This document shows, one piece after another, positions 1,486-1,970 of a DNA stretch of 4,936 bases. Each line of letters opens with the position of its first letter. Within the stretch, counting starts at the first letter, position 1. Made by a program: the position numbers and the translations under genes. Source of the stretch: a virus (lineage: Duplodnaviria; Heunggongvirae; Uroviricota; Caudoviricetes); IMG/VR virus record IMGVR_UViG_2645727676_000016. One strand, 5' to 3'. The notes below the pieces were generated by a model. That model saw only the letters and a list, made by a program, of their open reading frames with translations, had not been told where the DNA came from and ran no database searches.

Positions 1486-1710
1486 TGTTACCAATCTGTT
1501 AAAAAGCCGTTGACAAATAATCTTAAGCATGAGATGATGGTAATAGGGAAGAGCAACTCTTCCTGAATTAAACTATTAATCGTCTCTACATCGATGATAA
1601 CTATATTCTGATTGGAAAGGTGCAATGCTTTTCGTCATGGCCTTTCAGTTTAGTCTGAGAGGTTATCTCAAAAAGTGCTTAATCATTCATTATTGAACCC
1701 TTACAGCTTT

Positions 1711-1740
1711 GCCCTAACTCATGATTAGGGCGTTTTCTTT
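1711..1740 (+). terminator. candidate rho-independent terminator
   Basis: Perfect 7-bp stem GCCCTAA (1711-1717) / TTAGGGC (1725-1731) with 7-nt loop CTCATGA, followed by GTTTTCTTT (1732-1740). The T-tract follows the hairpin only on the + strand. Confidence 0.5.
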
Positions 1741-1741
1741 A

Positions 1742-1780
1742 AGAGTTTTTAAACAGAGCTTTTAAAGAAAGTTTTTCCTG
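1742..1780. repeat. three tandem ~13-bp units (AGAGTTTTTAAAC / AGAGCTTTTAAAG / AAAGTTTTTCCTG)
   Basis: Read directly: units start at 1742, 1755 and 1768 and directly abut the terminator hairpin; the third unit is degenerate. Confidence 0.45.
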
Positions 1781-1855
1781 AAACTTCGTTAACGTTAAAG
1801 CAAACCTTCAAAGCCCTTCACAGATAAGGATGAACCTATGTTTAGGGCTTTTTTC

Positions 1856-1869
1856 AGCTTTTAAAAAGC
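1856..1869. promoter_or_regulatory. AT-rich palindrome AGCTTTTAAAAAGC (possible protein-binding site)
   Basis: 6-bp arms GCTTTT (1857-1862) and AAAAGC (1864-1869) around a single central A. Same GCTTTT-AAAA core as the tandem unit at 1758-1766. Confidence 0.3.
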
Positions 1870-1922
1870 ATACTTGGCAAACGCCTTTTAAGTCTCTTCT
1901 AAGTTCGTAGGCTGTCAGGTGT

Positions 1923-1936
1923 GCTTTTTAAAAACT
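1923..1936. promoter_or_regulatory. AT-rich palindrome GCTTTTTAAAAACT (possible operator/promoter-proximal site)
   Basis: Perfect 10-bp palindrome TTTTTAAAAA (1925-1934) with the same GCTTTT core, 35 bp upstream of the ATG at 1971. Confidence 0.3.
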
Positions 1937-1970
1937 GAAACATAAATTATCTTAGAAGAGGAAAATATTA

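Follow-up and report, generated by a model that had tools for sequence, protein, structure and literature searches.

A conserved, covarying RNA region with a predicted terminated leader and a predicted masked ribosome site in a chromosomal island related to Felix O1-like phages

What does an interval of 485 bp without a gene do between two groups of genes? The question is raised by positions 1486-1970 of the DNA stretch analysed here (IMG/VR virus record IMGVR_UViG_2645727676_000016, 4,936 nt, hereafter the window). The interval is bounded on the left by the stop codon, at 1485, of an open reading frame (ORF) of 25 aa and on the right by the start codon, at 1971, of a 234-aa gene. A first reading of the letters alone (the sequence-only reading) had seen no credible ORF in it, and this was borne out. 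The longest ORFs are of 45 aa on the minus strand and of 23 and 26 aa on the plus strand; the small ORFs are broken by indels whose length is not divisible by three, and neither their length nor their sequence is constant among relatives. PGAP places no annotation across the interval in a 99.7%-identical chromosome, nor in 12 spread matches among the matches listed. The premise that such a gap is long for a compact phage genome was mistaken, since the window belongs to a chromosomal island between yciI and tonB (locus L020, in which the window is 20001-24938 and the island 16100-27650).

Judged by sequence comparison, the interval is a conserved, covarying and unannotated regulatory RNA region and not spacer DNA, and the structural claims made for it are well supported. 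As to function, we put at about an even chance the reading that it is a regulatory junction, in which a leader of ~190 nt would be terminated, the downstream genes would be locked twice, and release would probably come by antitermination through an invariant hairpin.

For the comparisons, 15 distinct loci were retrieved from IMG/VR and GTDB genomes via neighbouring proteins. An exact-match scan with the 20-mer at 1615-1634 (GAAAGGTGCAATGCTTTTCG) gave 13 viral and 99 metagenome loci, a set that is biased toward the 20-mer by construction. The pooled set comprised 103 distinct sequences of 635 nt and 86 distinct sequences running from the predicted start to the first terminator. Four distant islands, from Citrobacter freundii and metagenomes, were added via homologues of the 234-aa protein (65-70% identity); a promoter-pattern search for divergent leaders in viral contigs produced no new loci. 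The predicted start-to-first-terminator RNA is 183-297 nt long across the 86 alleles. The architecture is kept at ~70% identity in the Citrobacter and metagenome islands, which are integrated at another site. The non-coding modules are 93-99% conserved, against 76-90% for the flanking genes.

The region begins with a sigma-70 promoter (Table 1), the best promoter match in the window (10/12, with TG). The sequence-only reading had pointed out its TTGACA, which is present in 101 of 102 related sequences, but had found no properly spaced -10; the hexamer GATGAT in fact stands at exactly 17 nt, with TG before it. Among the 102 sequences the -10 hexamer is CATAAT in ~80% and GATGAT in ~15%, and the divergent islands retain the promoter with TAATAT, CATAAT or TAAGAT at this place. 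The hexamer spacing, within the 16-18 nt of sigma-70 promoters, and the conservation among relatives predict an active promoter, from which transcription would start near A1545. The plus strand from 1539 to 2001 holds no sigma-70-like site, and thus none between the two predicted terminators (T1 and T2) and the 234-aa gene. The right-hand genes therefore appear to depend on transcription that passes T1 and T2.

Table 1. Positions of the features of the interval and of the neighbouring genes (window numbering unless L020 is given).
Feature	Position	Strand	Sequence or remark
Sigma-70 promoter	1510-1538	+	-35 TTGACA 1510-1515; 17-nt spacer; TG-extended -10 GATGAT 1533-1538
H1 stem-loop	1546-1564	+	GGGAAGAG-CAA-CUCUUCCU; 5' end of predicted transcript
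Variable spacer	1565-1614	+	(GATG)n length variation; optional inserted hairpins in relatives
Invariant-loop hairpin	1615-1633	+	GAAAGGU-GCAAU-GCUUUUC
H2	1637-1666	+	9-12 bp hairpin, variable loop
Single-stranded tail	1667-1710	+	A-rich, then U/C-rich: CUCAAAAAGU, (CAUU)n, UUGAAYCCUU; runs into terminator
T1, predicted intrinsic terminator	1711-1740	+	GCCCUAA-CUCAUGA-UUAGGGC (1711-1731), then G UUUUCUUU; DNA tail GTTTTCTTT
Rest of module A	1734-1809	+	Hairpin: T1 U-tract UUUCUUUAAGAG (1734-1745) with CUUUUAAAGAAA (1759-1770)
T2, second predicted intrinsic terminator	1810-1854	+	AAAGCCCU ... AGGGCUUU within perfect U6 run
Hairpin B	1852-1940	+	~90 nt, imperfect; arms 1852-1879 / 1913-1940; begins in T2 U-tract
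Anti-Shine-Dalgarno segment in hairpin-B apical loop	1894-1903	+	CUCUUCUAAG
Ribosome-binding region and start codon (1971) of 234-aa gene	1951-1973	+	CUUAGAAGAGG
25-aa hydrophobic small ORF	1408-1485	+	MTLIVLWTLLGLFVGCWVGNAVNKN; last gene of upstream operon, unannotated by PGAP
Left end of island			221-aa gene, then 2.5-kb stretch without ORF >72 aa
Left operon of small genes			185 aa, 92 aa, 71 aa, truncated HNH endonuclease, 107 aa, 25-aa peptide
Right of interval			234-aa, 71-aa, 682-aa tape-measure, Dit-like 'baseplate' gene, then large serine recombinase
Tape-measure gene	L020 23083-25131		Window 3081-4936 = 5' part
Dit-like gene	L020 25289-26056

Three hairpins precede the terminators. 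H1, of which the sequence-only reading had recognised 7 bp at 1547-1563, is an 8-bp stem that covaries: 4 of 7 pairs are changed on both sides and 95.4% of cells are paired, with the variants AGAGAG/CUCUCU, GGAAA/UUUCC and GGAGAGAG/CUCUCUC. The other two, as well as T2 and hairpin B with its loop, were missing from that earlier inventory. In the spacer after H1, most lineages carry the motif CUUUCAACAAU / CUUUUAACAA (also UUUUCAAUAA), which the window's own allele matches poorly. In the form CUUUCAACAA the motif looks boxA-like beside the rrn boxA consensus, a tentative resemblance.

The second hairpin lies ~70 nt past the predicted start and ~75 nt ahead of T1. Its core, GUGCAAUGCUU, is identical across all lineages, and the 20-mer that contains the hairpin is invariant in 15 of 15 independently found loci, with varying surroundings. 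In the divergent islands the stem reads GGAAGU/GCUUUC, GGUAAGU/GCUUGCU or UGAGAGU/GCUUUCA; over all four, 3 of 7 pairs are changed on both sides. The remaining departures are G-U pairs, which argues for an RNA on the plus strand. The GCAAU loop and the two pairs that close it (U-G, G-C) never change. RNAalifold predicts the hairpin as well. It holds a sequence, AAGG, that resembles a Shine-Dalgarno (SD) sequence, followed by an AUG (1625-1627). The 20-mer is absent from the genome of the Felixounavirus wV8.

The third hairpin, H2, is paired in 99.7% of cells, has 3 of 9 pairs changed on both sides and is kept in the divergent islands; its variants include CCUUUC/GAGAGG, GACCUCU/AGAGGUC and GGCUUAUUUA/UAAAUAGGCC. 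The tail that follows contains conserved blocks with microsatellite-like length variation. A lower stem between CUUUUCG (1628-1634) and CAAAAAG (1669-1675) was tried and rejected: most of it does not vary, and 60 of 82 sequences mismatch there; the self-contained hairpin fits the divergent islands better.

When H1, H2 and the lower-stem test were scored together, 95.3% of cells were paired, compared with 40-62% when the partners were slid by 1-3 columns, and 7 pairs had both sides changed. The covariation score was 0.196 against 0.140 in shuffles, and none of 500 shuffles reached 0.196. Because G-U pairs are abundant, the minus strand would not fold; promoter orientation, U-tracts and the ribosome site all agree with the plus strand. 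Single-sequence folds gave z scores of -3.8 and -4.6. The structures are thus kept among relatives with compensatory base changes, which is the comparison that the sequence-only reading had proposed as its own check.

The terminator-like hairpin noted earlier at 1711-1740 (T1) was confirmed by its stem, which carries compensatory changes in distant relatives (GCCCUC/GAGGGC in the divergent islands, with apical inserts). T1 is the predicted 3' end of the ~190-nt RNA. It is found in ~70% of relatives, within an optional module of ~130 nt (1703-1832) that is 95-99% conserved where present, above the flanking genes, and is missing from about one third of relatives. The hairpin in the rest of this module shows a compensatory U-A to C-G change (UUUCUUCAAG / CUUUGAAGAAA). 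T2 is stronger than T1, has an apical extension of varying length and occurs in all relatives examined. A terminator scan alone was not above chance (5 found, 3.1 +/- 1.9 expected). Both T1 and T2 have a G+C-rich stem followed by a U-tract on the transcribed strand, and compensatory changes in the stem, and intrinsic termination is predicted at both. Strong terminators enclose each of the right-hand genes, T3 (2947-2984) among them.

No terminator precedes the promoter at 1510, and none comes before T1, so that the interval would also end the upstream operon; this supports the earlier suggestion of a 3' untranslated region. A discrete RNA of ~190 nt is predicted because of the conserved promoter of its own, the covarying structure and the terminators. 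Both halves of the earlier proposal, a small RNA or an operon boundary, fit on the plus strand; the RNA may act in trans or as a leader only.

Beyond the terminators, the ribosome-binding region of the 234-aa gene appears to be masked. Hairpin B has arms of 28 nt that are 86% complementary, with a folding energy of -36 kcal/mol in the window. Positions 1951-1960 are fully complementary (10/10 nt) to its apical loop at 1894-1903. The hairpin was found in three families (B1, B2, B3) and in the four divergent islands, with the same fold, a length of 79-92 nt and energies of -20 to -36 kcal/mol; its stem covaries, as in UUUUUAAAAGCACACU/AGUGUGCUUCUAUAAA versus AAUUCAUAAAAGCACACU/AGUGUGCUUCUACGAAUU. 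Loop and ribosome-binding segments are, respectively, CUCUUCUAAG and CUUAGAAGAG in B1 (the window), CUUCACCUCU and AGAGGUGAA in B2, UCUUCUAAGUG and CACUUAGAGG in B3, and UCCUCUAAGUG and UUUAGAGGA in locus L140; the divergent islands pair the loop with the ribosome site using other sequences (UCCUCUAAGUG, UUCACCUC). Over 79 distinct sequences, the cognate loop-ribosome site duplex had a mean free energy of -15 to -17 kcal/mol, with z scores of -3 to -4.2 against shuffled ribosome sites. Cognate energies of -18.4, -13.7 and -17.3 compare with -10 to -13.7 for non-cognate pairs. Since the complementarity exceeds the purine core of the SD sequence and both sides change together, this is not the mere meeting of a pyrimidine-rich with a purine-rich segment. 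The same design is absent before the tape-measure and Dit-like genes (z scores of +0.7 and -0.8). The complementarity is kept when either side changes, as expected of a translational operator that would sequester the SD sequence.

Two promoter-like sequences within hairpin B were considered and ruled out. The TATAAAT of variant B2 gives way to TACGAAT in its sister variant B2', and the opposite arm changes to compensate; thus the structure, and not a promoter, is conserved there. The same compensated TACGAAT rules out TATAAATA, in the 3' arm, as a T4-type late promoter.

These results suggest the following course of events. In the uninfected cell, polymerase coming from the 1510 promoter or from the upstream operon would halt at T1 or T2, which would release the ~190-nt RNA and insulate the right-hand genes. 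Any message made by read-through would be translationally silent, the hairpin-B loop being paired with the SD region. Expression would then need two releases, antitermination and afterwards the opening or cleavage of hairpin B. The antitermination step is proposed by analogy with known phage systems. Its handle would most likely be the invariant GCAAU hairpin, which is placed like a nut/boxB-type site for an RNA-binding antiterminator: a strictly invariant 5-nt loop on a covarying stem, between promoter and terminators, argues for a site that a specific factor reads. The likely trigger would be a helper phage of the Felix O1-like kind infecting the cell.

Terminator leaders and hairpins that mask ribosome sites are already known devices; this element is outside the curated Rfam families. 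In the late control of phage lambda, transcription from PR' yields the 6S RNA up to the terminator tR', Q brings about antitermination, and the late structural genes are expressed only once polymerase is terminator-resistant. The likeness lies in a constitutive sigma-70 promoter and a predicted terminated RNA of ~190 nt just upstream of virion structural genes. The differences are that no Q homologue or Q-binding element was found here, that two tandem terminators are combined with a translational lock, and that the genes concerned are a tape-measure gene, a Dit-like gene and two unknown genes in a non-lambdoid, low-GC island without sequence similarity to lambda. With the N-nut systems of lambda and P22 the interval shares a hairpin in the promoter-proximal leader, upstream of terminators, whose 5-nt loop starts like a GNRA loop (GCAA-U), and in most lineages the boxA-like motif upstream of it. 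Here the loop and its closing pairs alone are invariant on a covarying stem of 6-7 bp, and the resemblance is one of form only. Unlike in nut sites, where the spacing is ~8 nt, the boxA-like motif stands at a variable 35-70 nt from the hairpin, the match in the window is poor, the hairpin also has an SD-like sequence and AUG, and no N-like protein was found.

The translational lock resembles the SD-sequestering 5' leaders known from Escherichia coli rpoS and from RNase III-activated phage messages, in that a long hairpin ahead of the start codon carries a segment complementary to the ribosome-binding site, and translation would need this structure to open. It differs from these leaders in that the anti-SD sequence is found in an apical loop, that of a hairpin of its own, so that the predicted pairing is a loop-to-downstream pseudoknot and not part of the main stem. 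Another relative in form is the small RNA (sRNA) SviR of PLE, a satellite in Vibrio cholerae that depends on a lytic myovirus. SviR is ~210 nt long and is encoded between genes, in a stretch free of ORFs; conservation is highest in the promoter, the seed regions and the intrinsic terminator, and the targets are the ribosome-binding regions of messages from both satellite and phage (10.1101/2022.04.08.487710). The two have in common an RNA of ~200 nt, an ORF-free interval in an integrative element with a large serine recombinase and a dependence, probable in the present case, on a lytic myovirus, and promoter, core and terminator as the best conserved parts. They have no similarity in sequence or structure. 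The SviR promoter is induced by infection, whereas the one described here looks constitutive (TTGACA, 17 nt, TG-extended -10), and SviR has demonstrated targets, whereas none were found here in wV8 or the island.

The Rfam check that the sequence-only reading had recommended returned zero families at the gathering threshold. With Rfam 15 at permissive thresholds, the window and the whole island matched no family and every score was far below threshold. Plant miRNA-precursor models scored best, reaching 35-38 bits on the minus strand where the gathering threshold is 90; hairpin B accounts for these scores. Phe_leader aligned over 1717-1857 with 21.9 bits (threshold 55, E = 2.9), through the terminator part alone (T2). 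A scan for tRNA and tmRNA found nothing real. Near and distant nucleotide searches of phage databases, together with a search with the 234-aa protein, found no phage record with the interval.

Several points weigh against a junction released by antitermination. The start site, the 3' ends and the efficiency of termination are all predicted. No antiterminator was found among the small proteins of the island (Pfam, PHROGs and PADLOC: zero matches), nor any N-like or Q-like protein among the island proteins; the 185-aa product of the first gene was considered as an N-like arginine-rich peptide, but it resembles a conserved globular protein and the assignment is unsupported. The boxA-like motif, besides being weak in the window allele, lies far beyond lambda nut spacing. 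The SD-like sequence and AUG offer a translated mini-ORF as an alternative cause of the conservation of the hairpin. In wV8, terminators stand directly ahead of ribosome-binding sites, and partial read-through without a special factor is a possible and simpler option. Finally, 54 of 80 loci have a second copy of the core GTGCAATGC 2.0-2.3 kb upstream, within the motif CTGTGTGCAATGCAAnAACCATGTGACC and in a non-hairpin context, so that the factor could bind DNA rather than RNA. This upstream copy (L020 19412, ~2.2 kb upstream of window 1620; L140 3513) stands ~100 nt ahead of the promoter of the left operon, perhaps as a shared recognition site.

Among the other explanations, it is a tentative possibility, distinctly short of even, that the ~190-nt RNA is a trans-acting sRNA pairing with island, helper-phage or host messages, a role that can coexist with that of a leader. 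It would pair through its best conserved single-stranded segments, either the loop GCAAU or the stretch rich in C and U that follows H1. The conserved promoter and structure, the intrinsic terminator and the ORF-free interval would suit such an RNA, as would an invariant core of the kind seen in sRNA seeds, an A/U-rich stretch before the terminator and the precedent of SviR in PLE (10.1101/2022.04.08.487710). However, the invariant 23-mer has no above-chance target in the whole wV8 genome or the island: the best sites have 17 of 23 matches and a 9-nt run, and shuffled seeds reach 15-19 matches and runs of 8-12. Duplex energies at the island's translation starts, with large internal loops allowed, were no better than in random windows, and what the invariant hairpin carries is an SD-like and not an anti-SD sequence. 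A leader-peptide attenuator, in which initiation at AUG 1625 after AAGG and the progress of the ribosome through H2 would set termination at T1 and T2, would explain why the SD-like sequence and AUG lie in the invariant 20-mer and why an ORF starting with ML is kept in all lineages; the weak Phe_leader alignment could also be counted for it. We regard it as very unlikely. The ORF has 5, 7, 12, 15 or 23 codons among relatives, with unrelated sequence and differing stops, there is no run of regulatory codons, and no antiterminator pairing was found that competes with T1 or T2. Wobble positions share in the invariance, and G-U pairs figure in the covariation of the stem, as fits RNA structure over coding, and the Phe_leader score is far under its threshold and concerns the terminator only.

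It is quite unlikely, in our estimate, that the interval provides simple leaky insulation, with the 1510 promoter serving the 234-aa and 71-aa genes, T1 and T2 setting a low read-through, the hairpins stabilising or processing the message, and no switch. The late intergenic regions of wV8, which pass from terminators directly to SD and ATG, would agree with this, and so would the failure to find a regulator among the island proteins; long imperfect hairpins are, moreover, typical substrates of RNase III. Yet tandem terminators and a covarying anti-SD lock exceed what setting a dosage needs, and that the GCAAU loop and the pairs closing it stay strictly invariant across ~30% divergence implies specific recognition. 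That the interval acts at the level of DNA, as an operator, a packaging or replication site, or as decayed gene remnants, is extremely unlikely, although GTGCAATGC recurs outside a hairpin and iteron-like repeats exist elsewhere in the island. Pair changes through G-U intermediates are strand-specific, and U-tracts, promoter orientation and SD complementarity indicate an RNA of the plus strand. The 20-mer is not a shared pac or ori site, being absent from wV8, and non-coding blocks that are more conserved than the flanking genes do not point to decay.

The host element is an insertion of ~11.5 kb and ~38% GC, and the chromosome of E. coli strain 20, NZ_CP064847.1, matches the window at 99.7% identity. 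Another strain has the island at the same site, with ~86% identity and the same flanking core genes, and a ~66%-identical relative is inserted in a DUF72 gene of a metagenome-assembled genome. Among 5,426 complete E. coli genomes, element matches occur in 481, at up to 4 places per genome, and matches to the interval alone in 465 (~1 in 11); all are chromosomal. The island ends in a large serine recombinase with Resolvase, Recombinase and zinc-ribbon domains. Its only virion genes are the tape-measure and Dit-like genes. The latter is 92.9% identical in nucleotides to gp075 of wV8 over 521 bp, and its protein is ~81% identical to the one that more than 100 Felixounaviruses encode directly 3' of their tape-measure gene. 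The island's tape-measure protein aligns with that of wV8 over its full length at 27-33% identity and is shorter (682 versus 742 aa); the first 136 nt of its gene are 75% identical to wV8 and the remainder has diverged. That a divergent tape-measure gene stands beside DNA identical to the phage's suggests that the two exchanged sequence recently or that recombination into the phage took place. The GC content of the island is low, as in the phage. An integrase and helper-derived sequences are present, without a full set of virion or replication genes, as in phage satellites. Because of the Felixounavirus-related genes, the serine recombinase and the small size, we hypothesise from these sequence features that the island resembles a phage satellite or a tail-targeting defence island of Felix O1-like phages. 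A literature search found no description of such an island.

Further features of the neighbourhood were recorded. The left block is driven by an ordinary promoter. The start of the 25-aa ORF that ends it overlaps the stop of the 107-aa ORF, and islands from E. coli, Citrobacter (MDLVIAWTLLGLLCGCMIGNAANKN) and metagenomes all retain the peptide itself, with conservative substitutions. The HNH endonuclease ORF (window 644-931, 95 aa) aligns to the middle or C-terminal part of much longer PHROG profiles, and the HNH fragments annotated in other strains are even shorter (42 aa in SCU-485); a homing-endonuclease gene in decay is the probable explanation. Between the HNH and 107-aa genes, the gap is filled by an element of ~115 nt with inverted arms (GACGCTCTCAATCGC ... 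GCGATTGAGGAGGTC, window 940-1064), which is repeated at L020 19307-19410, upstream of the left-operon promoter, with an orphan right arm at L020 18040. On the right, the 234-aa gene (window 1971-2675) and its 238-aa counterpart at L009 1782-2498 are highly divergent alleles, in which homology is recognisable by eye in PEP.E.P, LP.G.R.V and a C-terminal coiled coil; neither has a family match. The 234-aa family is shallow, and its database homologues are all 'hypothetical' and confined to Escherichia, Shigella and Citrobacter. T3 is followed, just ahead of the tape-measure start, by an inverted repeat, GCTACGTGAAA-N33-TTTTACGTAGC (2998-3052). The element of ~87 nt in this region (window 2947-3083) recurs before the Dit-like gene (L020 25132-25288) with 90% identity and without an anti-SD sequence.

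In the large non-coding region at L020 17039-19595, GGTTAAGAAGGTC is repeated in tandem 3.8 times (18712-18761), and the region also has a direct repeat of 95 bp (18824-19001) and several promoter-like sites of the TTGACA type; its repeats are iteron-like. It shares short words preferentially with a 1.6-kb non-coding region of wV8, at 14.5-15.5 kb, which is rich in GTTGTTAAGAAGG / CTTGTTAG repeats, and it may be an origin or a mimic of regulator-binding sites. In SCU-485, NZ_CP053245.1, an extra small serine recombinase of 183 aa, absent from strain 20, lies in the large non-coding region of the island (L136 5775-6326). Two other likenesses to wV8 were set aside: a 14-mer, AGCTTTTAAAAAGC, shared with its regulatory region is about at chance level for AT-rich sequence, and the ~7-fold enriched sharing of 9-mers between the interval and wV8 66.0-66.5 kb is due to low-complexity, AT-rich sequence.

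The regulatory junction can be given a more specific role, which we consider doubtful. The interval would be the switch by which satellites or defence islands of an undescribed family, parasitic on Felix O1-like lytic phages, sense infection; a factor of the helper or of the island would read the GCAAU hairpin, the lock would open, and the island's own tape-measure and Dit proteins would hijack or poison tail assembly, while the RNA may also act in trans. What gives the element its interest is that it is conserved with covariation in Escherichia, Citrobacter and metagenomes and adjoins a block with a near-identical copy of a Felixounavirus tail gene. Felix O1-like phages are widely used in typing, biocontrol and therapy. 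If the island is a satellite of these phages or a defence that targets their tails, this junction would decide how the island responds to infection.

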